From Amphiscolops sp. MND2022 (lineage: Eukaryota): DNA of 64,000 bases. How positions within the stretch are numbered: position 1 is the stretch's first letter; each line of letters opens with the position of its first letter. The notes under the pieces were generated by a model. It saw nothing but the letters and a program-made list of their open reading frames with translations, was not told where the DNA came from and did not search any database. This document shows, piece by piece, positions 3,932 through 60,936 of the stretch. A program made the translations under genes and the position numbers. The stretch is from contig OZ076421.1 of the NCBI GenBank assembly GCA_964187785.1, forward strand, positions 33,294,001 to 33,358,000, read 5' to 3'.

Positions 3932-4753
3932 ATGTCTGATATCTCTGAGACATTTCCAATGAATTTCCAAGGCGCTGCTCAATCAGAAGGGGCCCCGGCA
4001 ATTATATGCACTTCTAGTGATGAGGAGGAAATGATGGACTCAGACTGTGGGTACTCTGTGGACGATTTGTACTTATCGTCGGAAGAAGAATCAACAGATG
4101 TAGAAATCATGGCTAGATGCATCGAGAGACAGCTAACTGAGCCAATTGCCATTCCCAACCCCGGGACATCAAGTGCGCAAGTTAGGTGTGGGACACCTAA
4201 ACCAAGCTTCCCAAATTTTCCTACATTCTCTCAGCAGTTTTTTAATCTGGGTTCAGGAAATGGACCGGTGGGACAAGATAGCCGAATCAAGGCCAATCAC
4301 CCCATCAACATTTGTAGGGATTTACGCACTATGATCGATACGCCAATGTTGCCTTCCCCAGAAGTCAGAGGGCCGTCCTGTATGCAAGAGACGCCAACTT
4401 GCTCATATTCAACGGACACTGCCTCAATCAAAACAGTTGCGAGCCACTTTGACGGCATGGCTTTATCCGAGTGCGCTGGCCTTGCAGGTTGTTCAGAGTG
4501 CGTAATTTGCGGGAAATCGGTCCAACAAATTCGAGCGGAAACAGTCAATGATTATATCGATAAGACTGTCGTGCCGGGTGAAACCCTTGCGGAGACTGAG
4601 AGGAGGAAAATGGCCTTTCTGGACGGGATGGCTGTAGGCACATATTTACTCATACCAGGGGGAGTGTCGCAGGCAGCCGCCTGCGATGGCAACTGGTACT
4701 CAGTAGCCTTTGGCTACGACAGAGTTTTGCCGGGAACGATCCCCCTCAACTAA
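3932..4753 (+). CDS. ORF-X (273 aa), retroelement accessory protein of unknown function: acidic N-terminus with a SIM-like motif, Cys cluster, C-terminus inside the LTR
   Basis: Uninterrupted ORF containing AIICTSSDEEE and CAGLAGCSECVICGK. Its last 28 codons lie inside the LTR and are conserved in the LTR at 59920. Confidence 0.7.
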   Translation: MSDISETFPMNFQGAAQSEGAPAIICTSSDEEEMMDSDCGYSVDDLYLSSEEESTDVEIMARCIERQLTEPIAIPNPGTSSAQVRCGTPKPSFPNFPTFSQQFFNLGSGNGPVGQDSRIKANHPINICRDLRTMIDTPMLPSPEVRGPSCMQETPTCSYSTDTASIKTVASHFDGMALSECAGLAGCSECVICGKSVQQIRAETVNDYIDKTVVPGETLAETERRKMAFLDGMAVGTYLLIPGGVSQAAACDGNWYSVAFGYDRVLPGTIPLN

Positions 4754-6198
4754 AGAAGATCAAAGATCGAGCGCGACAATCAGGCTCAGAAATTAAAGTA
4801 AAAAGAGAACGGAACTTTTACGACAAACTACTTTGTATTGTTATTTCAAACATGTAGCTATATCTATTTAGTTACTTTGTTATTTTAGTTACTTTTCAAT
4901 TTGTAAAATTGATCAAATACAATAATAATTGGACATCAAGGCGTACAGGTAGAGGAAACGAGTTCAAATGTTTCTTCCCCTGTCGCTGAGGACGGCCAGT
5001 CCGATTATTAAATTGACCAATCACAGCACAGTAGCTGGTTAATTCATTCATTCTAGTATGGCGCTGCTTTGTATAATCGCCGTACTCGGCCTTTGTTCGT
5101 CTGTTTATTTAATAGAGATTAAAGGACTGCTAGTCCAACTTGCCAAGCACCGCCTTTAATGCATCAATATATTGGTCCATTCATGTTGAATTGGACATTG
5201 AGGACGTAAGTCTTCGGCGCTAATATAGGTGCAATTATATTCAAGGAGTGTTGCTATTTTTTATTCCCCGGACTTACAGGGCTAAATACCATGCAATTTG
5301 TTAGTTGACACGAAAGTTTAAACATACATGTAAAACATGTAGCGTTGCATTGTTGTTATGTTGAGGACGTTGCGTCCACATGAACAATTCAAGCCGACAG
5401 GCTTTGATGTATATTTTTAGACCATGATGTTATAACTTGATGCTATTTATAGCTCATTGATTCTAAAAATAGTCCCATGATGCTCCAAATTGGAGCTGTC
5501 ACCCTAGCAAGGGTATATAAACAAGGTACTCGTGGTCCTTAAGACGCAATTTTGAGAATCTTCACCGAAAGCAGTATTTTATCATTTATACACTGTGAAC
5601 AAGTACTATCAACTATTTGTTGGTAAAGTTTATGGGGATAATTCAAATATTTGCCCAATAGAAACATTTATGCTTTCCACAAGAAGACAGAAAGCTAAAG
5701 CTAGGAAATCGAGAGAATTAGACATTTTGTCTGATATAGATAACGGAGACATAATGCTAGGGAATTCAGGAGAAAATCCCGTAGAGAGAGAGTTAGCAGA
5801 TGCGATTGAACAGTCCTCTGTCCAAGGAGACTACGAGGCAAATGAGTACCGAGGGAACAATTATAGTTTCACACAAGAAAAAGAACCGCTTAGACAAAAT
5901 GGATTTAGACAATCTATTGAGACTTTTACGAACGAAATCAATCTTAGATTGTCTCAAGAAATGGATTCCATGATGTCCATGGTCCATAACCAGATAAACA
6001 GAGCGATTAGCACTGCTATATGAGAATAGTCATTCCAGAGATTCAAAACATTGTTAGCTCAATGTCGTCTTCGGGAAATAGGGACACTGAGGCCAGTATG
6101 TCCCCAAGTAGTCAGGACAATAGGGAAAACAAAAATATTGAAAAAGGACTCACGGTCCGTTGGTGATTTAAGAGACGCCACCGGAAGTGGTCACTACA
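4665..6198 (+). mobile_element. 3' LTR of a Gypsy element whose pol lies left of the window
   Basis: Preceded by a polypurine tract AGGGGGAG (4657-4664). Starts TGTCGCAGGCAGCCGCCTGCGATGG, nearly identical to the LTR start at 59920. Contains CCAAT, TATATAAA (~5514) and the gag N-terminus. The right end (..CTACA at 6198) is inferred, and no PBS follows it. Confidence 0.7.
5670..6198 (+). pseudogene. gag: Gag N-terminal segment encoded within the LTR (disrupted)
   Basis: MLSTRRQKAKARKSRELDILSDIDNGDIMLG aligns with MPTTRKQKKARKSREAETLSDIENLDIMLG at 61068. A stop lies at 6021-6023. Confidence 0.75.
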
Positions 6199-32050: not shown

Positions 32051-34175
32051 TGTTACGACTATTTACCCTGGTAGTTTCATGAGTAGTCGCAGTGGTTTTA
32101 GTTTTAAATGGAGTTGAGGTTGCATTTTCCGGAACGTTTTCGGACTCAGAGTCAGTTTCATCGGAAGCTGTTATCACGGTTTGTGTTCTAGTTGTAGGGG
32201 CTATTAGTCTTAACACCTCCTTTTGGTTTTCAGCTAAGATTTTAGTAAGGTCAGACATTATTTCTTTCCTCAGCGAGGATTTGATTTCTTCTAGATTTTC
32301 AGTAAGTACTCTAGGAGATTTGCTCGTTCCCGCTACGGGATTTAGGTTCTGGCTATTCTCAGGTAATGGGGTTTCAATTTCAGTGGAAACTAGTTCTTCG
32401 ACAGATTTTCTTTTCTGGCTTTCAGTAGTCATTTTCAGCAAGAGAGAGAGAGGAGTAGTTTCTTTGAAAAATTCTAATTCTCCAAAGAAAATTGATTTTC
32501 TGAAAACGAGGTTTTAACATAGCAGAAAAAGCACTGATTCAATTATTTTACAAATTCCTGGGTATATATACTTTCACAGCATCATTGGTTCCTCACCTAA
32601 AAATTCCTAGGAATCCCTAAAATCGGTTTTGTTCATTAAAAATGCTTAATCACCCTTATTATTTCAACACTTCAATTAATTGTTCATACTTTAATATTCC
32701 TGGTCACGGCTCCTTTACGGAGTGCCTTGTTGAAATCATTTTTGTTCAACAACATCATTTCCGGTTTGATCGCGGAAAAGGCGGCAAAACAAAAGTTTAG
32801 TTGAATTTCTATCAAGAGAAGCACGCTGGCGTGAACAATGATTCATCCCAAAACTAGTGAAAATCATCTGTTCGCGGCAAAAGATTGACAAGCAGAATTG
32901 ACTACGGAAATATCTCGGACTGATTTTGGATTAATGTAGTGCATTATTTGAAAAGGGACAAATGATGCTGGAAAATGGTCAATACAGGTCAAGGACTGAA
33001 CTAGCAGATAACATGGCACAATATAGTTCTAAACTAATTTTAAATGTGTTGAAACATAATGGCCAGATCATTTAGTTCAATGAACATAACGTAATAAACA
33101 TACAAAACACTTTTTCCAAAATGAAGGAAAGCACCTTTTATTTGAACAATTACCTTGCCTTAACCTGCAGCACGATCATTTCGATTAGTTATAAAAAACG
33201 GAGAAAATTCGGAGGAGTATTATATAAACATTATGATATTTTGAATATTCCGACACGATTCCGTATGGCATGGGGAGTATTTCGGTATATTAAAATAATT
33301 TTGATCTTGCAACTTTTTCCTTAGTCGTTCTACACGTATTAACATTAGGTATAACCTCATTTATTTACAATTTGCTCCGTAAGCGCTCCGTGCGTATTAA
33401 GATTAGGTATAGCTTCATTGCTCTACAATTTGCTCCGTAAGCGCTCCGTGCATATTAAGATTAGGTATAGCAGGCTTGCTGTCAACGGAGCAAGAACGGA
33501 TTGATAAGCCATTCTTAAATCATTTTTAGTGACGTCACTAGAATAATTCTCACTAGCTTGAGCGCAAATATGCTGGTTTTAGATGTAACGCTATTGGTCC
33601 AAAAAATTAGAAAGACCAGTGCTTTACTTGTTTGAGCGACGCTGTCATAACGTTTTAAGAGCTTACTCAAATTACTTGACTGCGATTTGAGTGGGTTTTA
33701 ACAGCTACTTCAACTACTGGAAACAATTCCATTATGCTATTTTGTGTTCTTTTCATTTTACATTGTATGTATTCCGTTGGGATCGCGGAATTAAATAACG
33801 TTTTTAATGTTTTCATTCTAATGTGGAAGAGGAAACGAATGATCCCAGAGTTAAGAATGTTTTGGTTTTGTAGTTTAGATTGGTATAGAATTTTCAGCAG
33901 ACGAAAATGGAAGTAAGAAAAAAAACCGCGTATGAAAACATTAAACCGGAAGTTTCGTTTTGTCCAAAAATCACTTTTGGATATTTTACGTTGCGCTTCC
34001 GTTTGATTAAAATCCCTTTTGCTTCGATATTAGTTCGTGCTACAGTTTAAGTAAAAGTTAGTAGTTAGTTAAAGTTTTACTTAGTTACGTCCAGCTCACT
34101 CATGGCCTCGTCCTTTGGCGAATTTCGGGATTCCTCCACAGCAAGAAAAATCCCGACCGGGAGCGGGTCGTGACA
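32051..34175 (-). repeat. 3' LTR (2125 bp)
   Basis: Colinear with 45132-47091 and contains ~170 bp missing from the 5' LTR. It encodes the gag N-terminus (ATG 32432) and the ORF-X tail (stop 34096). Confidence 0.95.
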
Positions 34176-34770
34176 GGGCGCCTCTATAGTTTGTTGGCCA
34201 GGGTCTGGGGCAGAGTGGGATTTCCCACGTAATAAGCACGGGCTGCTTTCGTGCTCTTCTGATTCTCGTCGAGGTTAATGAATTTCCTCTCCCGGCGGTA
34301 CAGTAGTAGTCTTCTGTCATTGATAGCCCATGAGCCTCCTCTATTTCTTGGATGGAAGGTTCGTCTAAATCATTCAACTTCTCTGACTTTGAAGGAGGAG
34401 CATATTCCTTTTCGTTCGTGGTGTCTGTAAGTACGGGGGAACGTGTCAGTTAGGGCATTTCCCGGGACGAATCCGGGTCTTCGTAACAATCAGAGTTTTT
34501 TTTCTGATGTGATTCGACGACAAAAGCTTCTTCCGGGTCAGACTCGAATGTCGACGATAATTCTTGAGTGGAATCAAGGTCCGCCTCACTTCCCCGCCAT
34601 ACTTCTACAGAGGAATCACTTAGATTAAGTCTCCCCACCCTGTTTACGGGCGGAGTTTTGAACGGGGTATTGTATCTGTGGTTCTCTTCATCCGAGGAGA
34701 TGTCGATGACAATGGCATAGTTGTCCGTTTTGCTTTTGGCGGATTTTTATCTGAGTTTTGAAAATTCAAT
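34096..34770 (-). pseudogene. ORF-X homologue (frameshifted) with a SIM-like motif; ends inside the LTR
   Basis: (L/M)NFQ...AIVIDISSDEE compares with MNFQ...AIICTSSDEEE at 3932. The region is acidic, and its last ~26 codons lie inside the LTR. Confidence 0.55.
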
Positions 34771-35265: not shown

Positions 35266-38200
35266 ATGGATGGTGATTCTGTTCCGCCTGCTGGTACCGG
35301 CGCAGGGTTCTTCAGCGGCAATGAGACGACATTGAATTTCACCGAAGATGACGTCGTCGCTTTGGATGTGGATATTTCTCGTTCTGCTTCAGGTTGGTAA
35401 AATCTTTCTGACATACGTGGGTATTTGGACTATCTTCTTTGGTGATCAGCCTTTTTAGTCTTACCCGTAACTGCGACGCGTCAAACCAGATCTTGATTTT
35501 CAGTAACTCAGCCCATTGCTCTTCCTGGAAATAGCACCTTTACGAATGCTGGACGTTCCTTGACTCCCACGGGGCTTCCTCCCATTACCCAGGCATTTCC
35601 AACTGGCTCTGTCAATGCTGTTTTGACAACTGTGCTCTCTGGGTCTGGGCTTGCTACCTCTTTGCTGCCTAGTTCCTCTGTTTTGCCGGTGGCTCCAGAT
35701 GTCGATCCTAGTGGTTCACGAGGTGTCGAAGCAGTCAGTTCTCAGCTTCGGGATGCTACCGTTGACAATGAGCCTCGAGGAGGCGAGGCTGTTCCGCCCT
35801 CTCCGGAAAAAGGTGGAGAAGATGTGGGTAATGCCGGAGCTGAGACGTTGCAGAATAAAAAACCGGGGTGTTCCCGTGAGCTGTCGGTCAAATTTGCTAC
35901 TCCGCTACAGCAACGACAAGGTGGTCGTTCACCCACTTTGCATGAACTTATGGACGGGTGATGGAGCAGTTAGTTTCTTTTTTTTTCTCTCTCTCTTTTT
36001 TCCCTCGTTTGTTTGGTGGTATACTGCTTATATGCGATTATCTGATTAGGCTTCTGCTTGAGTTTCCTTTCTCTCACTCAGGTTTTCGTTCTCTTTTCTC
36101 TTTAAGTTTATTTCTTGGTATACTATTTTAGTATCTTTTGTAGGCAATGAGGTGGAGGACGTAGCTTTCCCCGGCAGTACTCCGTTAAGTCCTGTCGATT
36201 TGGCGCAGTTTGGTCGTCACCTGATTGCTGAGGTGGAGAATGGGGCCGTGCAAAGTATCGAAACAGGTACGTTGGTGTTCCATAGTGAACGAGGGTTGTC
36301 CGTTAGTGTTTGTTGGGGCTTGTGGTTTGTACGAATCTTTGCCGTTTTCAACAGGTAGTTTGTTGTTGTTGGCAGGTTTTAAAAAGTTGTCCAAGAAGAT
36401 CGGAGATCGTTGTCAGCGCCGAGTGCGGACTTATGGAAGTCGCAAGCTTTTGAAAAGACGGATGTTGTCGTTGCATCCTGCGTATCCCGATTTTGTCAGT
36501 GGTGCCAAATGCGGAGAGCCTACGTATTTCTTTTGTCGCGTCTGTCAACGTGATGTGCGAATGAAGACTCATGGATCTGGTGAGTTTAAACGTCACTTTT
36601 CATCTGATGGACACTGGTTTCGTGATGTGTGCTTCAGAGTGCACGCAGGGCTGCCCATATATAATAGGTTGCTAGAACCTATGGAACTAACAGCTAACCA
36701 AATTGCGGAGTATAAGGCCCAACTTTTTGTTGACCTGGCAGGAGGGTTCCCTTTCTCTGAAGATTTGTTACCCAAGCATGAGCAAGCGGGTTCAAAGGTC
36801 CCGTTTATGACAATGATCTCGTCTGTCTGTGAATGGCTCCGGAGTGGCAGCGACTTCACATTGTTGCGACGTTTCGTTTGTGGGCGTGTTTCCGTGCCTC
36901 TCTAGGAGAAAGTGGGCCTGAGTATCAGTTGAATTGGAGCCGAACTGAGACCGTGGTAAGGAGGGATATTATGTACTTTGGGTGGGCGTCGGGTTTTTCC
37001 TGTTCTGGGGGGGGGGGAATGAGGTATCTGTTGCGATTGAGATTTTTGTAATCCTGTAGTTCTACATTGTTTCAGGCTTTGCTGTGTCGTGGGCTCGCTC
37101 CTCGAGTGTTACGCTTAGTTCTCAGTGCAGTCGGGACACAAAATGAGTACACACTGTTTTATGAGAAGGATACGGACGTCGAGCGGTGTTTCGTTGTGTG
37201 CTGGCTGGACAACACTCTAAGGAAAATTTGTATTAGGCAGGAAGCTTTAGACCTGCTTCGTAAAGTTATCCGTCTGGGTTTCGTTGCCTTCCCGGACCTT
37301 CGTGAAGTTCTGACGGATTTGGTCGACTTGTGGCCGTCAATTCGTTTGTTCATTCGGTGTACTGGATTGCCTCACGTGAAGGATCAGGCTGATAGTGTTA
37401 GTGTTGTATTTTTTTGTCAACTTTTTCCCCATTTTGGGTGTTTCTTCTTCTTTTGGGATTGTTTTCGTCATTCATCAACTGTTGTTTAGTTGAGAGGAAT
37501 GGATTCGACTGTGATTTCATACGGACTGGTGGCGTATTGCTTTGGGTTGTTGCAATTGATGCTGGATACTTTTCATATTCATTTACCGAAATTGATACAG
37601 GGACGTAGCGATTATGCATTTCATGGCTATGGCGAATTGTGCAACCTCGTGTATTGCCTGCTGATGAAAACTCGCGAGTTGTCAAGTCTTCCTGGTATCC
37701 ACGATTGGGATTCGTACATGGACGTGGAGAAGGTGACGAGTTTCCCTGTTTCTCCTGTGGACGAGTTTTTGTCTCATTGTGAGTATGGGAAGTCGCTTTT
37801 AGCTGCAAAGACGAGTGAGATGCCGAAATTTCGTGGACGCTGTAAAGAGTTTATTGATCGTCTTGCTTTCCTGTTGGTAGAGAGCGCCAGCACACGGTCC
37901 CTTGTCTCGAAAAGTCTATGCAGTTTTTGCCCTGAGCTGATGTTGGAGGGTGACGATAAGTCTGCGTTCGATCTGTTCTCTGAGTTATGTGGTCTTCTGG
38001 TGGGGTGCGACGCTTTGTCTCGGGAGGAATCCAATGCAGCTGTGGATGAGTATAATGCGTATGTCATTGAGAAGCGAAGACAACATAACTGTTTGGAGCG
38101 GTCTGCCAGTACGATCCCGGATGTACGCCGTTATCTGTTTTGGGTTTGGATGTACTGCGGGTTTCCAAGTTGTGTTGCTTGCTCGTTGGTGAACCAAATC

Positions 38201-38765
38201 ATGAGTGTCTTCCTTCCACTATTGAATTGGGGGTTGCGGGCAGACTGAGGGGAATGTCCCTTTGTGCTGCAGAATTGTTCAGTCATATGTGCTGAGTGAC
38301 GGCTACTCTCCGCAATCATTGTTTGCCGAGTCGACTTTGGGTCTGATCCGAGATGCCATCGCTAATGCTGGGCTGTTCTCTATTGGAGCTGATTTTAATG
38401 TGTGGGAAGATTTGTGTGATCCTGGTGAGGATTCATTCATTGCAGCTTTTTGTGATTTGTTTAGTGAGTTTTTGTCAAAGCGGCAACGTTCCAGTGATGA
38501 ACATTATGCGGAATGTAACTGAGTCAATCATTTGTCGCGTGCAGTGCAGGGATCCCGTAACAGTTCCGTTGTTCGGAGCCGTTCTAATTCTTCTGTTGGG
38601 AAGGAGAAAAGCGATGGGAGTAAGGCTGGCGAAAAAAGCACCGTTATGAAGCGAGTCGAGAAACCGAAAAAATCTAATGCCCAAGCTGGTGGTAGTAAGA
38701 CAACGACTCCGAAGAAGAAGCCAAAGAAGAATGTTGATCGTCCCGTGTATCATCATATTAAATAA
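35266..38765 (+). pseudogene. Antisense accessory gene copy 2: BED finger, hAT-like body and basic tail; at least 4 introns
   Basis: FFCRVCQRDVRMKTHGSGEFKRHFSSDGH, YTLFYEKDTDV, AVDEYNAYV and a KKKPKK tail. GT-AG introns at 35969-36143, 36267-36375, 36956-37075 and 37397-37489 each restore the frame. The stop is 37 nt from the convergent pol stop. Confidence 0.75.
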
Positions 38766-38802: not shown

Positions 38803-41800
38803 TCATTCTTTTGATGTTACTGAATGAATTATGATTTTGGGCTTGTTGGTGTCCTTTAGTTTAGATAGTGAATTTAACGCAGCTACTACGGTTCGGTTTA
38901 GCGTGTCAGTCGTGTTTAGTAAGTCCTGAGTTTGAGGAGTTTCATCCGTAGTGACAGCGTCTATCATCCGGAAGTCAGGGTGTGCATTAGGTCTAGGATT
39001 AGGCCGTAGGTTATATCTTTTTGTTTTTCTGGGATTGTATCCAGCAACTATAGGCGGTAGTGTAGGCGGTATTGGGGGGCTTTCCATAGGCGGCGGGGTC
39101 GTTATAAAGGGGTTATCGCTGACGTCCAAGTTGAATGACGTATCATTTCCGGGGGATGTGGTATCCTCGGTTGTCTTTTCCTCTGCAGTTGTTATAGTTG
39201 CTTCATTGTTCGTTGTATATCGGTCTTCAGTTTGCACTTCCGTGATCGTAGCTTCTTCATTTTCTTTTTCCGATGAGTTTCCGAACAGAACTTCTCCGAA
39301 TTCGATTTCCCAAGCTTGCGCGTACCAATCGAAATGGGTTGTTTTAACCTCGGGATCTGGAAGATGATCTTTCACTTTGACTGTTACGTCAGGTACTCGT
39401 TGATTGGGCGCATATAGCCTTAGACGAATTCTATGGAGGGTTTGCGTGTATCTTGTTCCCGTTCGTCTTACGACGTAGTTGTTATTAGAAAGGACTTTGA
39501 CCACTATGTATGGTCCCGTCCAAATGCAATCTTTGAAAGCGAATTTCATTAACTGGTTATCAGCCTTCGGATTCAGGACGTAGCAATAGTCATTGACTTT
39601 CAATGGCGTTGCTGTCGCTTTTTTATCATAATATCGCCTAAACTTCAAATAGGATTGCATGAGGTTGTCCATGGCTGACTGATGAATTTCAGTGATTTAC
39701 TTCTGTAATTCATCCGTTAGGTCTTCGTTGGCGTCTTTTTTCCATTCTGGCTCGAGTCCCAGTTTGATGTCCAGAATGTTGTACGGGATGCGTCCGTGAA
39801 ATACTGTTGTCCGTTCGCAGCCAAGGCTTTCATGATAGCTTGTGTTGTAGTTCATGACTGCAATTTGTACGTATTTATGCCACATTGAACGGCGTTCTCC
39901 CGTTGATATTTTGAGGGACGTTTCCAAGGATGCATGCGTTCTCTCAAGTATGCCGATTGTTAGTGCATGTTTCGTCGTTGCGTGGCTAATCCGTATGTCA
40001 AGTGTCTGTGCTGTTTGATTACGACATCTGAGCGGAATTGTGATCCTTTGTCGGTGAGGATCACCGTAGGTAGATAACAGTGGCGTGTCATTACGTCAAT
40101 TATGCATCGGCCTACTGACCTGGCTGGCATGTCCTGAGTAGGGTATGTGAAGAGGTATCGAGAGAAAACGTCCATCATTGTTATGATGTGCTTGCATCCA
40201 TTTGATGAGGGTAAATTTGGTAGGATGTCAACTTCTAAGCAATACTCTGGGCCGAATGTAAATTCCGTGTTGCTCAGCATTTTTGGGCGTATTTGTCTCG
40301 TGTCAATCCGTTTGTTGGCTATGCAGTCAGGGCAATTGATTACCGAAGCTCTGATTTTCCGTGCAAGTCCCGGATAATAGTAGTTTCTCCGGCTTTCTTG
40401 GATCATCTTTGTTATTCCTGGGTGTTTGTTGGTTTTTCCGTGCAGTGTTGATAGAATTTCTGGGACTCTATGTTTCGGTATGAGGATTTGGTGATGCCTG
40501 ACTGTGCCATCCTCTCCGTAATATTTGCGCATGATAACTCCATCTTTGACTATTATTCGTTCTTCGTGGCGTAGCAGATTTTTCCCTCGAGGTTCAGTTT
40601 TGAGGAGGTGTTTGTCGTATTCTTCGTGAAGTAGACGTAACTTTAGCGCTTTCAGTATTGGATCCGCGTCTTGTTCTTTGCGTATTCGGGCATTTTCCTT
40701 GATGGCTCCAAATGCATAGACTTCCGTGTTGAGCGGTATGTGAACTGTTTCTGCTACTTCAGTGGATAGGTTTTGTTGATCTTTTTCGTCCACTGCTCTT
40801 TGTTTGCTAAGGGCTTTCCTTGCAAAAACTTCTTGTTCTGATTCGTCTTCTTCGTCTGGCAAGAAAAAGAGTTGTTCTTCATCAGCAACATTTGTGGACT
40901 GTAGGTTGACTTCAATGGGCGCCGTTATAATGTCGTCTCGTAGCTTGAGTTGAACCTTTTCTTTTGGTGTTAAAGCCAGGTGAGACAGAAAATCGGCTGC
41001 TGTGTTTTGTGACCCGGCTACGTGCATGATGCGGAACTTGAATTGTAGTACGTAGTCACAGGCATTCCAGAGAGCGGGTGGCGTTGTCTTTGTTTGGAAA
41101 AATCTTGGTACTGATCTGTTGTCCGTTAATACTAGGGTTGGTAGTGTTGTTTCCCATAGGATGTGACGGTATTCTTTGAATGCGTTTTAGATGGCGAGGA
41201 ACTCTTTGCAGTATATTGACATTTTTAACTGTGACGGAGAGAATACGCGTGAGCCGAAGGCAACTGGTGCGAAGGTTTTCCGTTTGTAGAGTAGTTTTTT
41301 GTCGTCGTTTCCTTCTATCATTAGCGCGTATCCTGATGCTCGGAAGCTTGCGTCCGTCATTAGTACGTAATGTTTCCCTGCAACAGGTTGTCTGAGGGCT
41401 AGTCCACATGCTTCCGCTAGGCTTGCGTTGATGGTTTTGAAGTTGTCAACAAGTTCTTTTGATATGGTGATTTTTGCATCTGCTTTTGAGAGTTCATACA
41501 TTCCGATCACCTTTTTGGACAGTCGTGGTTCGTAATTTCTGTAGTAGTTGATAAATCCAATGTTTTTCTTGTTCTTTGATCGGGGAAATCTGATTTTTGC
41601 CAAGAAGTTGGTGACTTTGTGGTCTTGCGGAGCTGCTGCGTTAGCTGTGATGGTTCTTCCGAGAAATTCGATTTGGGTAACGCCGAAGTGGCATTTCTCA
41701 ATTGTGAGTTTTAGGCCAGCTTTGCGAATGCATTTGAAAACTGCTCTGATGTTCTTGATGAGTTGTTCCGTTGTGTTGGCGGCGATTCCAATATCGTCTA

Positions 41801-44111
41801 CGTATTGGGCACACTGGTCTGCTTTGATGACAGTGTCGAGGTATTCCCACATGAAGCTCGAGAATGCTGACAAGGCCCTACAAAGTCCTTGGGCTAGCCT
41901 ACGATAGGCAAACGTTCTACTAGCAAAATTAAATGCAAGGAGTTCTACTGACCTTTGATCCGCCATTTGGAGACAGTGGTAGGCTTGTGAGCAGTCGAGT
42001 TTGCAGAACAACTGTTTCCCCGCTAGGTGTGGTGCAGCATCTGAGAGGGTGCTGATGGGGTGGTTGTTGTTTATGTAGTCGTCTGAGGTGAGGGCGTTGA
42101 TCTTCCGTAAGTCACCTAGGAGCCGCAATTTGTCGTTGGGTTTGCGTTGCGCAAAAATGGGGCGAGCATATTTCAAAAATGGGAGGGTTGTGATGATCCC
42201 ATATTTGTGCATCAGTGCTAGCTCTACTGTGAGGTCGTTTTTGAGGTTGATGGGTACCGGTAGACTCTGCGTGTATACTGGTTTGTCATTTTTGGGAGTT
42301 AGGCAGACCTTGAACTGGGTGTTCATTCTGATGTCTAGCCGGTGGCGTGCGCAGATGTCGTTGAAATCGACTATGATGGACTCCAGATTTTCACGATCCT
42401 CTCCCGTTATTAACGAATCATTCCATTTGAACATTGAGAGGAATTGGGATCTGGATTTTTCGTCTTGTTTGGTTTCCAGTTCTTCTAATTTTTGTAGTCC
42501 CCGTAGTTCTCGCAGAAGGCGCTGCTGGATAGGTGTGTGTTCCGGTTCATCTCCGGGATTTTCGGGAGTAGGGAACCAGAATTTTTCTTCTGTTTGTTCT
42601 GGGGAATCAATTTGCATTAGTGCATTTACGCACGCAACAACATCGTCGTGTTCGGTGAGTAGATTGAGGGCTGCTATATCTACTGCTCGTATCAATTTCG
42701 TTTCCTCAGGTTTCAGTATTTGTAGCTCTGCTAGTTTCGTGTGTGGCGTTATTGTATAGGGGAACTCTGTGGTGTTCGCTATTTTTATCGCCACTCGTTT
42801 GTCTCGTGCTGTTGTTATTGCTGGGGCTACCACAAGTTTTGCATTTTCGTCAAACTGTGGTGTCCCAGTTGTCCCAGTTATTGGGTGATCGTTACTTACA
42901 GTAATGGACGCGTGGATGATCCGTGTGGCCTGTGCTGGAATGGTGTGTTTTTCTTCCGTCTTGATGGTGATGGGTTTGGGGTTGCACTTTTGCATTTCAT
43001 CCTTTAGAGCTAGGGTGATTTGTATTTGAGAGAAGTCTATTGTTCCTTGTGCAGTATCTAGGATTGCGGAATGTTTCCGGAAAAATGCTGGACCGATGAT
43101 CGGGTAGGATGTTTTGGTCATGATGATGAAGGTCTCTTCGAACGTGTAGTCGCAGATTTTGAACTTCAAGGTGTATGTCGCGCGAGCTTTTTCGAGTTCG
43201 GTGTTGGCATATTGTATTCTGAAAGTGGCGGAGGGGCCTTTGCAATTATGGCTGCATTGGTTTCGTTTTGTATCTTGTCTGCATCCTTTTCGCTGATGAC
43301 GTTGATGTCGGCACCCGAATCGACTAGTGCATCGATTCTGGTGTTTTTGAAGTCAAGGGGTATGAAAAGCATTCTTCTCTTCTTCTTGAGAGTAATTGCT
43401 GACATCAACGGAAAGTAGTCGTCATCTTTGGCATGTTGTATGAATTCCTTTATGACGTTGAGGTCATAGGGCAGTTGTTGTGGGCATTCTGTTACTTCTC
43501 CATTTTCGTGGTGATTTTTCTGTGTTGGTAGTTTGGGTGCTGTTTTTGGAGGTGATGCTGTAGGATAGGTTTTTCCTCGTTGTTCTCTTTCTTGTTGTGC
43601 CCATATCGTTTTATCCTCGATGCAGATGATGTTCTCTGCATCTATCGGTGTTGACGTGGTGGTGACGGGTACTGTCGGGGACGGTGTTGTCATTTTTAGG
43701 TTTGGTGACGGCGGCGATGGTAAATTTGTAATCTCTGTGGATTGGGCTTGAGGGTTTGGGACCTGGATTTTGAAAGAGAGTTTATTTGTGTCATAGATGG
43801 TTGGTTCGTCTATAGTCTCTGTCATATATGTAAATGCGCTCGGTTCTTTTATTCTGGCAGAGGTCTTTTGAGTGTCGCATAATTATCGGGTGACTCCGTT
43901 ATCCATTGGGGTAGTGGTGTTGGGTCCTTTGGGTGTCTGGCATTGTGTCTAAGTATCATGCCTACGTTCCAGCGACGTTGCCAGTCCTGGGTTGATTCCT
44001 CGTTGCTTTCTGTGAAAAAATCCTCTTCATATCTATTTGGGGGGTCATCTATCGTGTACGCCTTGCGTCTACCGTTCCCCCGAAGCGGAGGCGCGGCATT
44101 CTTGGTTTTTT
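38803..44111 (-). pseudogene. pol: Gypsy pol (a few frameshifts and stops)
   Basis: LVDSGA (PR), LDCSQAYH and YVDD (RT), LMTDAS (RH), HPG..CPDC / DVFSRY / TDKGSQF (INT), and WTGPY. Confidence 0.95.
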
Positions 44112-45507
44112 GGCTGGATTTCAACAATGGGGATCGGTTGTTCGCCAATTTGGCTTGTGGGTATGGCGAACTCGTGTCGCTTTTTCCTAGGGTCATTCGC
44201 CTCATTAGCTCCGTACCAACAGTTTTCAGTTTTGTGGAGTTTTCTACAAGTATCGCATTTAGGTTTGGGTAGTTCATTGATGTTGGGGATGCCGTTCTGC
44301 TTTAGTTTCATAGTAGCGATCTTTTCGTAATTTACGGCATTGTGCCTTATAATGCCCATATTTGCCACAGTGGAAACAGTTTCCTCGTTGATTGAGTTCC
44401 TTTTTGGTTCCGTAGGGCAACGTCAACCGCGTTTAAATGGTACTAGAGTGGTTTCGTCTGGGGCGCCCAGGCCATTGAGGCGCATCTCTATTTCGAGATG
44501 TAGGACAATGTCGCTATACGGTTTGTCCTCGAGGTAGGCTCGGTTAAGAATCTTTTTGACATGGTCCGGCATTTTGGCGTATATAGCCTTGTCTTTACAT
44601 TTTCGTGCTTCTGAACCGAACGCTTCTTTAGCTGTTTTTTGCTAGTGTGTCTAAGAATTCGTGTAGTTTTTGCTTGGTTGGATCAAAATGTAGCGAGTCC
44701 CATTCGCATCTCGCTTTGGCCGACAATTGAAAATCTCCGAAGCGCCGTTTGAATGCCGTAATTACCTCCTCTAGGTTGTTTTTCTTGGCGTCGTCTAAGT
44801 TGCAATATGCCTGCAGCGCATTGCCTTGTAGTAGTGAGTGAAAGTAGTTGATTTTTTGAATTTCTGTTAGATGTGGGTACATTTTTTTTGTTGTTTCGGA
44901 ATAGGTCCTCGAAAAGTTCGAATTTTTTGGACTTACCATCAAACACAGGTAGGGATGCAGTGAGTGCTTTTGGCATTGAAGGCGGGTGAGGTGGTGGGTG
45001 GGTTTCCGGTTGGGGAGCGAATAATAGTCTTGATGTCGAAGGTCGTTCGTTGGGTGGCAGACTTTGTGGACGGTGTGGTCGCGTCTTCTTTTTCCCCAGA
45101 TTCGTGGAGTCATTGAGGACTCCTGTCACCATGTTACGAGCCGGGGTAGTTTTATGAGTAGTCGCAGTGGTTTTAGTTTTAATTGGAGTTGAGGTTGCAT
45201 TTTCCGGAACGTTTTCGGACTCAGAGTCAGTTTCATCGGAAGCTGTTATCACGGTTTGTTTTCTAGTTGTAGGGGCTATTAGTTTTAACACCTCCTTTTG
45301 GTTTTCAACTAAGATTTTAGCAAGGTCAGACATTATTTCTTTCCTCAGCGAGGATTTGATTTGTTCTAGATTTTCAGTAAGTACTCTAGGAGATTTGCTC
45401 GTTCCCGCTACGGGATTTAGGTTCCGGCTATTCTCAGGTAAGGGGGTTTCAATTTAAGTGGAAACTAGTTCTTCGACAGATTTTCTTTTCTGGCTTTCAG
45501 TAGTCAT
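44103..45507 (-). pseudogene. gag: Gypsy gag starting inside the 5' LTR
   Basis: MTTESQKRK at 45507, LPVFDGKSKKFELFEDLF, knuckles CFHCGKYGHYKAQC and CDTCRKLHKTENC, and A AAA AAC at 44111-44105. Confidence 0.9.
45120..45131 (-). promoter_or_regulatory. Primer-binding site
   Basis: TGGTGACAGGAG immediately follows the LTR end ACA, and the same 12-mer follows the LTR at 61660. As recalled, it is one mismatch from the complement of a tRNA-Leu(CAG) 3' end; this is not verified. Confidence 0.8.
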
Positions 45508-47091
45508 TTTCAGAAAGAGAGAGAGGAGTAGTTTCTTTGAAAAATTCAAATTCTCCAAAAAAAATTGATTTTCTCAAAACGAGGTTTTAACGTAGCAGAA
45601 AAAGCACTGATTCAATTATTTTACAAATTCCTGGGTATATATATTTTCACAGCATCTTTGGTTCCTCACCTAAAAGTTCCTAGGAATCCCTAAAATCGGT
45701 TTTGTTCATTAAAAATGTTCAATCTCCCTTATTATTTCACCCCTTCAATCAATTGTTCATACTTTAAAATTCCTAGTCACGGCTCCTTGTTCCTAGTCAC
45801 GGAGTGCCTTGTTGAAATCAATTTTGTTCAACAACATCATTTCCAGTTTGATCGCGGAAAAAGCGGCAAAATAAAAGTTTAGTTGAATTTCTATCAAGAA
45901 AAGCACGCTGGCGTGAACAATGATTCATCCCAAAACTAGTGAAAATCATCTGTTCGCGGCAAAAGAATGACAAGCAAAATTGACTACGGAAACATCTCGG
46001 ACTGATTTTGGATTAATGTAGTGCAATGTTTGAAAAGGGACAAATGATGCTGGAAAATGGTCAATACAGGTCGAGGACTGAACTAACTGATAACATGGCA
46101 CAAAATCGTTCTAAACTAATTTTAATGTGTTGAAACATAATGGCTAAATCAATTAGTTCAATGAACATAACGTAATAAACCTACAAAACACACTCTTTCC
46201 AAAATGAAGGAAAGCACCTTTTGTTTGAACATTTACCTTGCCTAAACCTGCAGCACGATCATTTCGATTAGTTATAAAAAACGGAGAAAATTCGGAGGTG
46301 TATTATTTAAATAATATGATATTTTGAATATTCCGACACGATTCCGTATGGCATGGGGAGTATTTCGGTATATTAAAATAATTTTGATCTTGCAATTTTT
46401 TCCTTAGTCGTTCTTTACGTATGAACATTAGGTATAACCTCATTATTTTACAATTTGCTCCGTAAGCGCTCCGTGCGTATTAGGATTAGGTATAGCTTCA
46501 TTGCTCTACAATTTGCTCCAAGAGCGCTCCGTGCATATTAAGATTAGGTATAGCAGGCTTGCTGTCAACGGAGCTATAACGGATTATTAAGCCATTCTTA
46601 AATCATTCTTAGTGACGTCACTAGAATAATTCTCACTAGCTTGAGCGCAAATATGCTGGTTTTAGCTGTGACACCATTGGCCCGTAAATTTATAAATACC
46701 AGTGCTTTACTTGTTTGAGCGACGCTGTCATAACAATGTAAGAGCTTACTGAAATTACTTGACTGCGATTTGAGTAGGTTTTTACAGCTACTTCAACTAC
46801 TGGAAACAATTCCATTATGCTATTTTGTGTTCTTTTCATTTTCGATTGTATGTATTCTATTGGGATTGCGGAATTAAATAACGTTTTTATTGTTTTCTTT
46901 CTAATGTGGAAGAGGAAAAGAATGATCACAGAGTTAAGAATGTTTTCGTTTTGTAGTTTAGGTTGGTATGGAATTTTCAGCAGACGAAACCGGAAGTAAG
47001 AAAAATAGCCGCGTATGAAAACATTAAGCCGGAAGTTTCGTTTGTTTGCTTTCACAGCAAGAAAAATCCCGACCGGGAGCGGGTCGTGACA
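45132..47091 (-). repeat. 5' LTR (1960 bp)
   Basis: Pairs with 32051-34175 but is visibly diverged from it. Confidence 0.95.
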
Positions 47092-54163: not shown

Positions 54164-56974
54164 TCGAGTTTCTTAATTTTACGTACAGTATTACTGTGCT
54201 AAAGCGCCGTATAATTCAGTCTTTCCTTGCACTACTGCATAAAGCATTCCTTTGTGATTAGTAGGGAAGATATATGAATTTTACAATCGATCGTTTGTAA
54301 AACTAACATTATTCGCGAGTGCTACATGACATTATTAGGTAATATAACTCAACATTGCTATTACTAAGACATCGTTTCAAGTTTTACATGTCTTGTGTTT
54401 TTTAGTTTACCAAGTTTCGGTTACTTGCTGTTTTGAAAGGTGCTTGAAAATTTTGCAGTTGTGGCTGCTGAAGCAAACAGGCGCCGCTTCGAAACTGTCT
54501 ATGAATGCTTGTGATCTGATGTTTCTCTCTCTACTCGTTTGTTACTGGTATTATGTAGCTGTTTTTTAGGCGGCCAGGGCATTTATGACAACTTCATTGT
54601 AGATTTTAATGCACAAATGGCATTTCTCTTGCACATAGGGCATTACAGGTGGGTTAAGCTGTCTCCTGCTGACTTTCGTTTACCTGCGTGCTTGATCACC
54701 ATTCTAGGTTGCGTTCATATCTGCTGCCACGGGGTTGTTATGTGTTCACTGAGTGTCCAGTTATTATTGCCCATTGCAGTTGTTTTAATATTTGATACTG
54801 TTGGGGTCGTTAGAGTGTTGAAAGCTAGCAATACCCCGTACGGTTATTGGATTTTATTTTAGTTAATCAAGTTGGACATGTAACTGAGTATTTGATGTAC
54901 TTTATGGATCCTTAAGGGTGTTTGCAATGTCCCCCTGTTGCGATTGTTTATGTAGTTTCGACTTTGCTATTGGATTTCACGTGGGATTAAAAAGATGTTA
55001 TTGGTGTAGATCTAATGGGACGGTTAAAGTGAAGGTTGTCAAGAACGTTTCCTACACTTTTTTTGGAAAAGTAGATATTTGTCTTACTGAAAGCTCATAT
55101 ACCATCGGGAAAACTGCTGTATCACAAGTATTGCTAGGAACAATGGCGAAATTAGCGCTTAGTAGTAAGTTTTCATCATTATTTTCACTCATTTCGAAGA
55201 ACGAACTGGGAGAGATAATGGAAATTCGGTATGTTCAGATACTATCCAACACCCGTTTCAACACAAAGTATAGAAGTTTTATATTGAAAAATTTAGAATT
55301 GCGAATTAAAAATACTTTATTGAAAATACTGAGAACTGGCGAATTGCTGCAAGCGACTGCAAACGCATTTTCGTCAAAACCACAATAACATGCGTTTTTA
55401 TTAGGATTACTAAAGATTAGTATAAGAAATCCTATTTGAGTATAATGAATCCTTTTTGTGTATAAGAAATACTGTTTGTCTATATGTTCTCCGCGGAAAT
55501 AGTATAACTTATACTTGACACTAGTATAAGAAATCCTTATAGTGGGGTTATTTATTAGAAATCCTAATAAGTCGCACTAGGTTTTTTGATAGCAGGGATA
55601 TAAAATCCTCCGTTTTCACCAAATATTAAAAATCCTTAAATTTTCGAAAAAGTTAAAACTTACAAATAGGTAATAATAATACAAAAAATAATACATTAGG
55701 GGCCAGTGAAAATTCCCTTGTGGAGCATTTAAGGTTATTTAATAAACTTTTGAGGTTCGTGAAAGTTGTGTCTTGTAATGTATCTTGCTCAGTCTTTCTT
55801 TTACTATTTCGCTTCCGATAACGTCTATTACCGCCTATTTTCCCGATTCAAGTTTCTAACAGGGTTTCAATCTACTGACTAGACCGTTCGGTGAATTTCG
55901 CGAGAATGAGAGTTCTCTTTTCCTCCCAGCTGATGGGTGTTTGCCCAGGCTTTCATCGAGTTGTCAACATTTCGCGGTGTGATTCTTTCTTCTAAATCAC
56001 GTTTTTCCCGGTAATTTCGAGGTTGGTGTTGGATAATATTTTCGACTCCCATTAAACAATTCCACAGCAGAAGTGACCATTTTCTGAATATTTTATACTA
56101 AAAAGACATGATTTGAATAAATATGTACCAAAAGTTTTGAAATTAGTCCAGTACTTGTTTTCTTAGCTCATGTATCTACTGCTCCAATATGATGCATGCT
56201 TTGTGATGCATGATGATTCATTTTGTAATGAGGATGATATATGTGATCACTTCATAGTTAATCACTGTTGGTCAATTCTAATTTGCGTCGTCCTGCATGG
56301 TGCTTCACTTGTCACATATTTCAGCTAAGGGGTGATGCATCATACGTATGTAAATGGTTTCAAAAATGCAATCTAACTCACCAATCACTCTGGCAGATTT
56401 GATTCGTTTTCACTTAGCACATCCAACCAGCGCGTTAAATTTGCGCAATTATGCAAGTGGAACTTTCTTGAAGTTTTTTTGGAAGCCATGCTGCATCTTG
56501 ATTTCTTTGGGAAGTCAAAGTTGTCCTGTTTAAAATTTACCTAGTAATTGTTTCACAGTTTTCCAACGTCATTCTGTTTCCTACCTGTTTTTACGTTTCC
56601 GATATTTGTAGCTTTGTAGTACTCTTGTAATTCCAAATCACTTTTTTCAAACATTACACATTCATCACTATATTTTCGTTCTGCCTTCACACATATTGCG
56701 ATCCAGAAGCTCATCTATTGCCATCCTTATCGAAAACGATAATCTCCTAAAGAAAGGAATGCAATTTTTTCTCTGGAGCGACAACATGCTGATACTGTTT
56801 CAGTGCATGGCAAGCTTGGATTTAAACATTTCCCGTATAAAATCTAGCGGTATTGTTTTAGACGTCTCAGATTGAATATAAGTTGGCCAGTCTTAAACTT
56901 TCTCGACTATCTTCAGATTGGTCATTTTCCGAGTTCTGATTTTGATCGAAAACGTAGATTTCCTTATTTTCTTA

Positions 56975-57129: not shown

Positions 57130-59919
57130 ACAAGACCAGAAAGGTTGTCCCAGTTCAGAAAACTTTGGTGGAGTGTTGCTTCGTCAAAGATACTCTCTTG
57201 ACAAAGACAACTGTCTCACTGAATTGGTGCCCCAAGTTTTTTGAACGACAACATAGACGAGTTCATTGACGAGGACTTGCCTGCAGATGTTATTGTTGAG
57301 CGAAAAAGACATACGCCGGCAGGTGTTGCATTCCTGATTACTGCAATTAGCCAATGTCCCTCTAGATGGAGTGCCCCCTGGACCATCGTCTGCCCCAAAC
57401 AACACGCTCCAGATCGTCGTAATAGGTGGAGAACAATTCGCTTCAAAGTTAGTTTCCAAGGACAAGCTTTCAACTTCGAAAGGGTCCCCTTACATGCAAT
57501 TCCTTACTAAGGCAAGCTTCTGAAAATAAAAGCTCAAGATCTGGAGCCAAAGAACATAACAAAAAATCCTGAGTCAGCCCTGCAAATCGAACCTAATTCG
57601 AGGTCTAAGGTTTTTGGACAGACTAGTTTGGAGCGCTTACTTGCAGAAGATGCTGGAGAAACTGCCGAATCTCACAGAAGGACACTGTTGCAATGGACGT
57701 TAGTCAACCCAGTACTGTTTCTTTTCGAGATCAAAAACGACAATCCAGGGCTGAAGCGTCTGTAACTGCAAAGTTTTCTTTTGTCTTCGCAAAGGAGTAC
57801 CAGTTCGGACTCAGATACTGATCCGGATTCAAAATCATAATTTTCATCAGCTAAAAAACTTATAGCCACCAAAAGTTCCCATGAAGCGACGTGGAAAACG
57901 TAAAGAGGGCAGTTCTCCGAGAAAATGAGAAAACCCCAGAATATCCTGGCATGGTGAATGTATCACAAATATCCGATCATCAAATTCTTCGCCACTGCAC
58001 CTGCTGATGTTGCCACATACCCTTTAAAAGTATCGCTGTGGTGTTTGTTTGGTCGACATTCCGTGAAGACCAATGTTCCATTGGAGATTTCAGGCATTAC
58101 CGCAGCGATACTCAACTGGTAAAGGAACATAGGATGCGAATGGAAACTCCAGGAGGACCATTGTTTGACAAAGAGTGCAATGAGCTTGGCGGAATGGGTC
58201 CTATTTACGCTAAGGAACGAACCAAGCGAGAGTATCTCATCTCACCGAAATTGGTCTATTACTTTCTTCGAGCAGAGCAACAGGATCAACCCGATGAAGT
58301 AAACCCCGAAGTTCCCGGCTAGGAGATCCTATCCCAACTTGGTCTCCTCACAATTGGAATACGGCAAGGAGGCTGTTTGGACTCAATAATCACTCTCTGG
58401 CAAGACCTTATGAAGGAAACAAGGACACCCGAGCCAATTTCGCTACAAGACTGAAGGCCACACAGACTTTTCGTCAGTTGAAATTCTTGTACTTCTTTTC
58501 TTCATAGAATTGTTGTAGTGGTATGGTTTTGCTTTGCAGGGACTTTGTCCCATATGTTTCGTGAGTTACTTTCTTTCTGTGTCACGTCGGTCGAAGCTAC
58601 TGGCAGCTACTCACTTCATCTTGCTGTTCGTTCTTGAAAAACAAGACGGTTCGTCACTTTTTTGTGCTGGCAACTCCCTGCACAGCTTGGACATCGCTGT
58701 CTTCCATGGACAATTGAAAAAATCCTACCATGCTCATACCTAGAGTCAATCGTTTTCTAGCTCTACTGGACAAAGAGCTTCAACTGTTGTTTCTCTCAGG
58801 CTTCACCCGGTACCTCGCTGGGAACAGTTTATGTTCGTACCTACTGTGCATATCATGGACAGGTTCGACTATCGGAGCGTACTCGACCTCTTTTTACTGC
58901 GACTCCGGTCTGTCCGTGAACTCTGGTATGTCTTTGGAAATTCCTGATGTTATGTTTTCCACATTCCCAGAGAGTTAGACTTTTGTATGTTGTCGTTACT
59001 TCATGTTTTCGATTTAGTTATTTCATCTAACAGCTATCATCCAAAATAAACAATCCATGTGAACTTGTGAATTGGTCAGTTTCCAATCTGTTTCGTAGGT
59101 CAATGGTTTCCAATGTTTGTGTAAAAATCTTCGTTTCTCGGGAAGAATTTTGGACTTCTATTAGATATTTTAATACTCATTGGGTTGATTTATTTTCTTC
59201 CCAAGATGTATTTTCAACAGATCAAAGCATGATACATTCTCGCTTCGCATTTTTGGTTTTTAGATTCCCTTTATGTATCAAGAAACTTGCACCATAATGC
59301 AGCAAATTGGTTCTTTTAGTCGTTTCTTTTTCTTCAGTTCTCATTTTTGACTCTACGTTACTTAACGCAATAAATCAGCAGATGAATTGTGCCGTAATAT
59401 TATCATGTCTTGTTGATCTTTGCGCGTGCACAGATTAGTTATTGTATTTGTCTCGTTGCCTTTTCGCCATTTTCTAACACGTGAATTTTTTACTCTAATC
59501 ATTGCAATGACAGTTAGTCCATGCAGTTTTGCTTCAGGTTGATTTCATTTTTGTTTATGAGCTCCCATATGCTGCGGAGATCATGGATCGCCTGATCTCA
59601 AATTGGGACCAGGTTACTTCTCAACGACGGGGCAGCAGAAGCGTGCCAGCATTAATTTGTAAATACCTTGTTACAAGCGAGTTAGCAACATCGTCTTTCG
59701 CCCATCTTTCTTTGACGAAGCAGTGATTCGAGAAGGCAGTGGGTCTCACTACATGGACTCATTACATCTAACAGCGGGCTACTGCGTGCAGCAAAGATGG
59801 ATCGTCCCACACTCAAAGCTAGTGATAGTGAGTGAATACTTGTCGCTCATGGCCAAGTTCCGGTCAGATAAGGTATCCAGTCCCAACGAATAGGTCGATT
59901 TCTTTTCCCGTTATTATGA
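57130..59919 (+). pseudogene. Accessory gene copy 3 (BED/hAT-like), heavily decayed and cut by the LTR at 59920 (left end approximate)
   Basis: KFFATAPADVATYP-KYRCGVCLVD-SVKTNVPLEI-RHYRSDTQL at 57980-58130, QD*RPHRLF|gtcagt..ttgcag intron at 58473-58539, SVEATGSYSL, and SFFDEAVIREG..IVSEYLSL near 59700-59860. Confidence 0.65.
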
Positions 59920-60936
59920 TGTCGCAGGCTGCCGCTTGCGATGGGACACGAATCACAACGACTACTAACGAACAAGAAGCCGTACCGGGCACTCTACCCA
60001 CATTTTAGGAGAATTATTCAAAACTTTCAGTAAAACTCACTGTTGGTTTATTACATTCATTATGTATTCGGATTGAATATTAGTCTGATTAATACCCGTG
60101 TTAGAATTCAAACGGTGATGATTATGTTTATATGATGAATTGTTTAGCAGTGACGTAATGTAATAAAGGCAAGTGTAAAGCTTAAAGGAAACGAGTTCAA
60201 GTGAACGAAACTCCAATTCCGGAGACGTCACTTGAGCTCATTTCATTAGCCAATCAGAACGCTCTATCCTGCTGTGCATTATACTGTCATATTTGTTTGG
60301 CCGTATACGGCCACTTGACGCTATACTTTATTTTGTAAGCGAACCAAAGGCAAATGGCCGGATTAGGCCATTCCAACTATTAGCTTTTGTAATTGTTTAA
60401 TTTGAGTATGCGTGTTATTTAAAGTCATGTAGGATTATATTTGTATTTAGAAGGCGCTAATGAGGCTATTTAAACCCAATTGATGTAGTTGTGACCACCA
60501 GTCATAAAACTCTAAATACTAGTCCAGCGGACTAAACCGGTCACTTTAATTGGATGGTACCTTTGTCAAATGGCCGAATTGGGCCGCGCTCACTTTTTAT
60601 TAGTGCATATAATTAGAGTTGCTACCTGATGAATTAGCCTGCGTGTGCAGGCACGTGCCTTAGATATCTCACATACCTGTTGACACAAATATTACTTTGA
60701 AGTGTCTGAACATGTATTTGCCTTGATGTTAATTGTTACGGGAATGCGGACTAAACCGTCCCCCGTACTTTGAAGCCATCATGAGTATGTAATTGAGTGC
60801 ATTCCTCAGGAATTCTTCCGACCCTAAATTCCTGAATCGCTTTGATGCAATAGCTATTTTCCAATCCTCGTAAAATCTCACGATCCTTTAGAGTATGTAA
60901 ACATTTCAATAATATGTGGAAAATGTGAGTGTCACA

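Follow-up and report, generated by a model that had tools for sequence, protein, structure and literature searches.

How can a gene with several introns persist inside a retroelement? The question is raised by a 64,000-nt stretch of contig OZ076421.1 of Amphiscolops sp. MND2022 (assembly GCA_964187785.1, positions 33,294,001 to 33,358,000, forward strand; this whole stretch is referred to as the window), in which an earlier reading of the letters alone had described three highly divergent copies of a cargo gene that share intron positions within a retroelement. We found that all five introns claimed by this sequence-only reading start with GT, end with AG, are T-rich (38–55% T), and are flanked by the peptides it quoted. 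Further, the Trp seven residues ahead of intron A is invariant in 18 of 18 alignment rows and in 40 of 40 loci, the stop read at this Trp position in copy 3 is indeed a TGA codon, and the second shared intron (B) of copies 1 and 2 is a phase-0 GT..AG intron at a homologous site. The acceptor of copy 3, described as 1 nt short, falls at 66 nt by protein similarity and its AG at 67 nt, which leaves the downstream exon one base out of frame. A key fact left out of that reading is that the cargo gene lies antisense to gag-pol, which likely accounts for the survival of its introns through retrotransposition. We propose, with a probability of roughly 0.6 for the account as a whole, that the cargo is an antisense gene with fixed introns carried by a family of Gypsy retrotransposons, that it derives from a hAT transposase that is now catalytically dead, and that its product is likely the element's own DNA-binding regulator.

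To place the window copies in their family, we scanned the 1.07-Gb eukaryotic assembly with three cargo queries, which returned 3,934, 6,829, and 10,996 first-look candidates; 150, 150, and 115 of these were scored, and most of the matches listed were stop-free. Each junction was located where the 18-residue peptides on its flanks matched best, with the dinucleotides ignored. The seed peptides were hand-picked at GT/AG sites in three loci, with canonical calls taken in during later rounds, and are not independent of GT/AG; junction placement in every other locus is independent. The family consists of three deep clades, K (copy 2), R (copy 1), and M (copy 3), with 12–21% identity between K and the other clades in the core exons and 50–61% in integrase. 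Four core intron sites (A, X, B, and C) are common to all three clades. In a first, redundant set of loci, GT..AG was found at 184 of 190 homology-placed introns; in a second set of 40 less redundant loci it was found at 138 of 144, compared with 0 of 144 at each of eight shifted positions that served as the chance control. The claimed homology of the intron positions thus holds under formal alignment. The donors (GT[A/T]AGT) and the T-rich acceptor profile at the exon borders are those of U2-type introns. Across all clades, the exons between the sites are 162–165, 44–45, and 27 codons long (with a frameshift in one locus), three Trp anchors are present in all 40 loci, and retention of the intron would close the reading frame in 138 of the 144 cases. 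A single profile per exon, built from other copies, matches all three window copies (E values of 8e-77, 1e-56, and 1e-20 for the zinc finger exon), and the intron bodies of these copies, with a likeness of 0.41–0.55, are no more alike than shuffled introns (mean 0.52, maximum 0.59), as expected from the claim that intron sequences diverged while their positions held. Splicing of the cargo transcript is what we infer from this conservation of splice sites and exons in the DNA.

The intron complement varies among the 40 loci, and each absence is an exact exon join. All four introns are present in 25 loci; B is missing from seven (L060, L063, L067, L033, L142, L148, and L095), C from two (L034 and L089), and X from seven, all of clade K. 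In L036, intron B is present, measures 99 nt, and is in frame. On the cargo tree, B was lost three to four times and C twice, and X represents either one loss or one gain, depending on where this tree is rooted. We note that loss of B can spare both X, at a distance of 135 nt, and C, at 81 nt. Such loss of one intron at a time fits poorly with conversion by fully spliced complementary DNA. Microhomology at the intron ends was considered as the cause of the losses and does not explain them, the mean being 0–2 nt (0 for C). With at least six separate exact losses in 40 loci and neighboring introns 81–135 nt away spared, the family offers a natural series for the study of intron loss.

Proteins in the databases show the same sites. 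Among 1.84 billion proteins searched with a profile, 640 matched at an E value of 0.001 or better; 150 of these were listed, and all 150 are fragments of one or two exons. Among those listed, the residue at site X is Val (GTN) in 64 of 72 R/M-type proteins versus 1 of 26 K-type proteins, three proteins lack intron A yet have the Trp in place, and two R-type proteins continue through X. In 26 near-identical young copies, intron A occurs in 25 lengths and in all three frames, and the exon stretch from A to B is 621 nt in 25 of the 26. Among loci L004–L030, intron A varies from ~130 to 203 nt by slippage in T- and G-runs, which is consistent with copying of the intron by reverse transcriptase (RT). 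One intron behaves differently: in U1, which comes first among the upstream introns of clade K, the DNA is strongly conserved across six divergent copies (that in the window, L034, L036, L040, L042, and L044), whereas the sequences of the other introns are randomized. A sense-strand exon hidden in U1 was ruled out by insertions and deletions that shift the frame; a long hairpin can be drawn, with covariation in only 3 of 38 pairs. The conserved U1 is probably a cis-element, either a binding site or an RNA signal.

We then considered whether the spliced gene is under selection. The ratio of nonsynonymous to synonymous substitution rates (dN/dS) was determined across the exons of 20 pairs of copies; dS was saturated in 15 pairs, at dN values of 0.15–0.45, and four of the five measurable pairs gave ratios of 0.03, 0.05, 0.08, and 0.14. 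Because exons downstream of introns are translatable only after splicing, constraint on them bears on splicing itself. Further, cargo and integrase give concordant deep clades (distance correlation 0.72). Exons of fixed length, splice sites that fit the consensus, purifying selection, frame-closing introns, and exact intron-less joins together bear out, at the level of the family, the earlier suggestion of long-term selection for a spliced gene inside a retroelement. We conclude that the cargo is, very probably, a spliced and selected gene that is protected by its antisense orientation.

The fetched cargo copies reside in LTR (long terminal repeat) elements of ~14–16.5 kb, with the order 5' LTR, gag, pol, cargo on the opposite strand, a small sense open reading frame (ORF), and 3' LTR. 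Integrase lies on the strand opposite the cargo in all 40 loci used for the trees, and the cargo lies antisense behind pol in all of the 30 best matches to an integrase query, which represent one clade only. These elements are young: the LTR pairs are 99.0–99.95% identical in seven of eight stretches of one set (the eighth had a single LTR) and 99.9, 99.7, 98.3, and 94–96% identical in four of five stretches of a second, and the cargo is retained in every sampled copy of the young subfamilies. All three elements examined have TG..CA LTR ends and 5-bp target duplications. The sense strand of pol is uninterrupted over >1,700 codons and lacks introns. Pfam domains in the copy 2 element run RVT_1, RT_RNaseH, Integrase_H2C2, and rve, and a protease match was found in the element at 61068; direct LTRs, target duplication, and the order protease, RT, RNase H, and integrase identify the host as a Ty3/Gypsy element.

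We envisage that a hAT transposase gene was taken up, in reverse orientation, by an ancestral element. Element RNA destined for packaging and reverse transcription would run opposite to the cargo, so that the cargo splice signals would go unread and the introns would be copied into new insertions; introns likely persist because, being antisense, they escape splicing in the template of reverse transcription. After insertion, the gene would use an antisense promoter of its own to give a separate antisense transcript, which the host spliceosome would splice and which would be translated. The protein may then enter the nucleus, bind element DNA, and promote transcription or shield the element from silencing.

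To see what kind of protein the gene encodes, we examined its domains and predicted fold. The product has a long acidic or low-complexity N terminus, a zinc finger, a transposase-like body, and a basic tail. The finger, in the upstream exon, has an invariant C-x2-C...H-x5-H pattern (18 of 18 rows); it gave no zf-BED match in Pfam and aligns to host BED fingers at 0.3% probability in profile-profile comparison. The model of the exons from A to B (pLDDT 74) consists of a helix, three strands, a helix, a strand, and helices, and in Foldseek its first seven ranks are Hermes transposase chains (E value 5.3e-4, probability 0.99); its match in VIA spans Hermes residues 152–344. In the model of the part after B (pLDDT 66), Hermes is the top VIA match of 48,161 chains (Z 6.2, root-mean-square deviation (rmsd) 8.2, 197 residues aligned, Hermes residues 338–601). 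The two separately folded halves thus match abutting ranges of Hermes in order, and intron A maps close to the beginning of the catalytic domain, at about Hermes residue 151. Where neighbors of the finger-plus-core piece in Atlas are assigned a common family, it is a hAT family (scores 0.83–0.88, a lead only). We predict from the models that the cargo protein has a hAT fold with an RNase H-like core and a helical insertion domain, colinear with Hermes, and consider a hAT origin of the gene probable.

The protein is predicted not to be an active hAT transposase, the catalytic DDE apparently having been lost. We assigned the catalytic columns by offset and secondary structure against Hermes, not by residue-level superposition, using what we take to be the roles of its D-D-E triad and RW motif. 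On this assignment, the first Asp column holds E in 13 of 20 rows and T or A in seven, and the second holds no D or E in any of the 20; the Trp of the RW motif is kept and its Arg replaced. The C-terminal helix region, examined in 18 rows, has no ER motif. For the last exon, no longer homologs and no Atlas match were found, and the cargo gave no match among phage records. A search for DUF4371 found no match, the controls being likewise blank.

Several results run counter to this account. The hint of a hAT relationship in the earlier reading is supported by predicted fold and not by sequence: a Pfam scan of the cargo exons gave no match (Dimer_Tnp_hAT included), PDB profile searches with the cargo gave none, cargo profiles matched none of 1,833 ORFs from 32 host hAT loci, and profile-profile comparison with host hATs gave probabilities of 0.1–0.3%. 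(The host hAT ORFs fetched include five long, uninterrupted ones of 597–697 codons; three short-ORF loci look broken or deleted.) The fold scores are modest, as the Z of 6.2 is within the tool's "common arrangement" range, VIA places Hermes 15th for the core among RNase H-like folds (Z 5.4, rmsd 10.3), behind actin-like ones, the C-terminal model had no match in Foldseek, and all Atlas scores are below 0.9. As for the gene, 6 of the 144 introns would read through in frame, and the fifth measurable pair, two decayed close copies compared over 234 codons, has a dN/dS of 0.65. Of 23 well-supported splits in the cargo tree, the poorly resolved integrase tree recovers only 10 and shows one supported conflict; this mismatch indicates that some recombination occurs. 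Long-term selection is shown for the family and not for the window copies, all three of which contain stops, frameshifts, or deletions. Finally, the regulator role draws on domain anatomy and analogy.

What, then, does the protein do? Its anatomy and its retention in every sampled copy of the young subfamilies point to a nuclear DNA-binding helper factor, and we give the role of regulator, by analogy, a chance of about one half or slightly less; among possible roles we rank activator or anti-silencer first, integration tether second, and repressor third. In the second of these, a gene of the same origin would encode a protein that acts on the new DNA copy, tethering the integration complex to preferred chromatin or aiding nuclear import. 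The hAT body and zinc finger would provide DNA-binding parts, to which the basic tail could be added, and a review of plant elements proposes that antisense ORFs may serve to bring the pre-integration complex into the nucleus (PMC7264820). Elements of this family also cluster, with three in the window and a fourth just to its right; such clustering is, however, expected anyway in a repeat-rich genome, and a protein made from a transcript of its own would serve any copy in trans. We regard the tether as unlikely. Still less probable is a brake, in which the protein would be a repressor or a copy-number control that limits harm to the host, as HBZ for human T-lymphotropic virus 1 (HTLV-1). Retroviral antisense proteins made from spliced antisense RNAs do suppress transcription from the 5' LTR (PMC10186651), and the layout is identical and the anatomy that of a DNA-binding protein, but all copies sampled from fast-spreading young subfamilies retain the cargo, and a brake acting in trans should easily have been lost from them. 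That the antisense RNA matters rather than the protein, through double-stranded RNA or small-RNA control with introns serving RNA processing, seems very improbable: antisense transcription from retroelements can be regulatory (PMC7264820) and the sequence of U1 is conserved and able to fold, but the amino acids are under strong constraint and the codon counts of all core exons are fixed. The idea that a hAT DNA transposon inserted once and was carried along without function, its GT..AG pairs being leftovers or chance, can be dismissed for the family, for although nested insertions are common in the window and its three copies are decayed, no inverted repeat of at least 40 nt flanks the cargo copies (shorter ones were not searched), purifying selection operates, splice sites are kept while intron bodies are randomized, and the deep cargo clades match those of integrase.

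In its fullest form, our preferred account of a regulator gene is tentative and stands somewhat short of even odds: a retrotransposon would have captured an intron-bearing hAT transposase gene backwards, disarmed the enzyme, and put it to use as a sequence-specific activator or anti-silencing factor; the antisense orientation would let the introns ride through reverse transcription, and thousands of copies would record precise loss of single introns in real time.

The layout itself has precedents. Plant Retand, Grande, and RIRE2 elements and fungal Boty elements have antisense ORFs in the interval from pol to the 3' LTR, and the antisense product of Grande is nuclear, has its own promoter, and has been proposed to be regulatory (PMC7264820, PMC11963269, PMC4408406). 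The genes of the plant Tat/Retand group (Grande gene23, RIRE2, Retand TRP28 / transposase_28 PF04195, plant mobile domain) occupy the same place and orientation as the cargo and are likewise kept in most copies; in contrast, the cargo exons have no PF04195 match in Pfam, and the cargo folds like a near-full-length hAT transposase and has two to four core introns plus upstream ones, whereas the main text of PMC11963269 nowhere uses the word "intron". The brtn gene (Zhao et al. 2011) is, like the cargo, an extra gene antisense behind pol in a non-plant element, the Boty-like fungal Ty3/Gypsy elements (PMC7264820, PMC4227169, bioRxiv 10.1101/2021.04.13.439636). The hbz gene of HTLV-1 and related antisense genes of deltaretroviruses share with the cargo a spliced antisense transcript and encode nuclear regulators of their own virus's transcription (PMC10186651), but HBZ is a bZIP protein of an exogenous retrovirus, spliced near its 5' end, whereas the cargo has several introns in its coding region, a probable transposase origin, and a retrotransposon as its carrier. 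The Ty1his3-AI indicator, in which intron removal is confined to the strand that permits splicing (PMC8074290), is an engineered mirror image: its intron faces the element RNA and is lost, whereas the cargo introns face away and are kept.

Domesticated hAT transposases have DNA-binding roles. DAYSLEEPER/SLEEPER, ZBED1/DREF, GTF2IRD2, and FAM200/ZBED5 reuse a BED-type finger and hAT body without transposition, as the cargo would; these, however, were adopted by host genomes, whereas the cargo would have been adopted by another transposon and is still high in copy number. The review that calls for a search for spliced antisense transcripts found a transposon origin of antisense ORFs unsupported (PMC7264820). 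The excerpted literature on rotifer, annelid, orchid, and brown-alga elements describes no such antisense gene, and in the full-text literature, short of most subscription journals, Repbase, and supplements, we found no hAT-derived or multi-intron antisense gene of an LTR retrotransposon. What appear to be new are the probable derivation from a hAT transposase, the conservation of several introns across deep clades, and their exact losses.

The antisense accessory genes of LTR retrotransposons have so far been without established origin or function (PMC7264820). In the cargo family, the origin can be traced, probably to a hAT transposase, the fold can be predicted, and the role can be tested; the family would be a case of one transposon class adopting the enzyme of another, as host genomes do. 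It also suggests that retroelements can carry ordinary multi-intron genes indefinitely, provided that these face backward, and that annotation based on ORFs breaks such a gene into meaningless pieces.

Table 1. Cargo genes and parts of their host elements in the window (positions counted from its first nucleotide)
Feature	Positions	Strand	Remarks
Cargo gene copy 1 (clade R)	1..2700	-	antisense to its own element; last exon extends left of window
Copy 1 exon with C-x2-C...H-x5-H (BED-like) zinc finger	950..1546	-	ends at W+6
Copy 1 intron A	872..949	-	phase 0, 78 nt, GTAGGT..TCAG
Copy 1 exon A-X	386..871	-	162 codons, predicted RNase H-like core
Copy 1 intron X	322..385	-	phase 0, 64 nt, GTGAGT..AAAG; missed by the earlier reading
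Copy 1 intron B	103..186	-	phase 0, 84 nt, GTAATT..TCAG
Copy 1 intron C, donor end	1..20	-	phase 1; 152 nt in total, remainder left of window; missed by the earlier reading
Second accessory ORF, element-sense	3878..4753	+	head to head with cargo, extends into 3' LTR
3' LTR, copy 1 element	4664..6198	+	5' LTR 7.7–9.3 kb left of window, 94.5% identical
3' LTR, copy 2 element	32070..33960	-	94.0% identical to its 5' LTR
Second accessory ORF remnant, copy 2 element	34450..34746	-	
Cargo gene copy 2 (clade K)	35266..38765	+	antisense to its own element
Copy 2 upstream intron candidate U1	35393..35503	+	phase 1, GTTGGT..TCAG
Copy 2 upstream intron candidate U2	35958..36143	+	degenerate donor, by eye
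Copy 2 upstream intron candidate U3	36267..36375	+	GTACGT..GCAG, by eye
Copy 2 intron A	36956..37075	+	phase 0, 120 nt, GTAAGG..TCAG
Copy 2 intron B	37397..37489	+	phase 0, 93 nt, GTTAGT..TTAG
pol of copy 2 element (protease, RT, RNase H, integrase)	38803..44301	-	frameshifted; tail to tail with cargo
gag remnant	44628..45453	-	start within 5' LTR
5' LTR, copy 2 element	45145..47043	-	followed by TGG-starting primer-binding-site-like sequence
Decayed remains matching the cargo-upstream stretch (accessory ORF / 3' LTR end) of clade M elements	54464..55213	-	colinear with copy 3
Cargo gene copy 3 (clade M)	57901..59920	+	heavily decayed; pol not directly adjoining within window
Copy 3 intron A	58473..58539	+	GTCAGT..GCAG, 67 nt

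The coordinates of the window copies and of their elements are collected in Table 1. Copy 1 is interrupted by stops and one frameshift. Its intron A is stop-free and in frame and for this reason is not by itself proof of an intron; the proof is supplied by the family. Copy 2, which belongs to a subfamily without introns X and C, has frameshifts, one stop, and an internal deletion that leaves 107 codons in the exon from A to B versus 207 in its relatives, and copy 3 represents the 3' part, now decayed, of a third element type. A fourth element of the family begins at 61068-64000, and its antisense cargo (L033), which lacks intron B, lies 4–7 kb to the right of the window.

The second accessory ORF has ~250–340 codons and is present in all three clades. 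It had no match in Pfam and contains a conserved hydrophobic-then-acidic motif, I/V-x-I-S-S-D-E-E, which presumably resembles a SUMO-interacting motif. We also note that gag starts ~100–200 codons inside the LTR (45145-45453, 32031-32513, and 5556-6023), so that each LTR holds a fragment of gag and the primer-binding site falls within gag. A weak dUTPase-like match (PF04797, E value 0.05) covers residues 132–209 of the ORF at 41190-43352 (-), between protease and RT in pol.

Remnants of a viral fusion glycoprotein (PF24664, E value 5e-7) at 22625-23161 (+) and 28079-28498, near other Gypsy fragments, belong to an envelope-bearing element of a different lineage that has no cargo-gene signal. 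A decayed BEL/Pao-like element occupies 48097-54161, with direct repeats that are 92.6% identical and a DUF1759 match (E value 3e-13); BEL/Pao elements are typical of animals. A run of N lies near 16570-16770. Further, there are tandem arrays of 47-, 59-, and 64-nt units within 6470-6880, 30779-31170, 14103-17571, and 29916-30161 and two long inverted repeats at 21628-22147 and 26538-26790, none of them related to the cargo.

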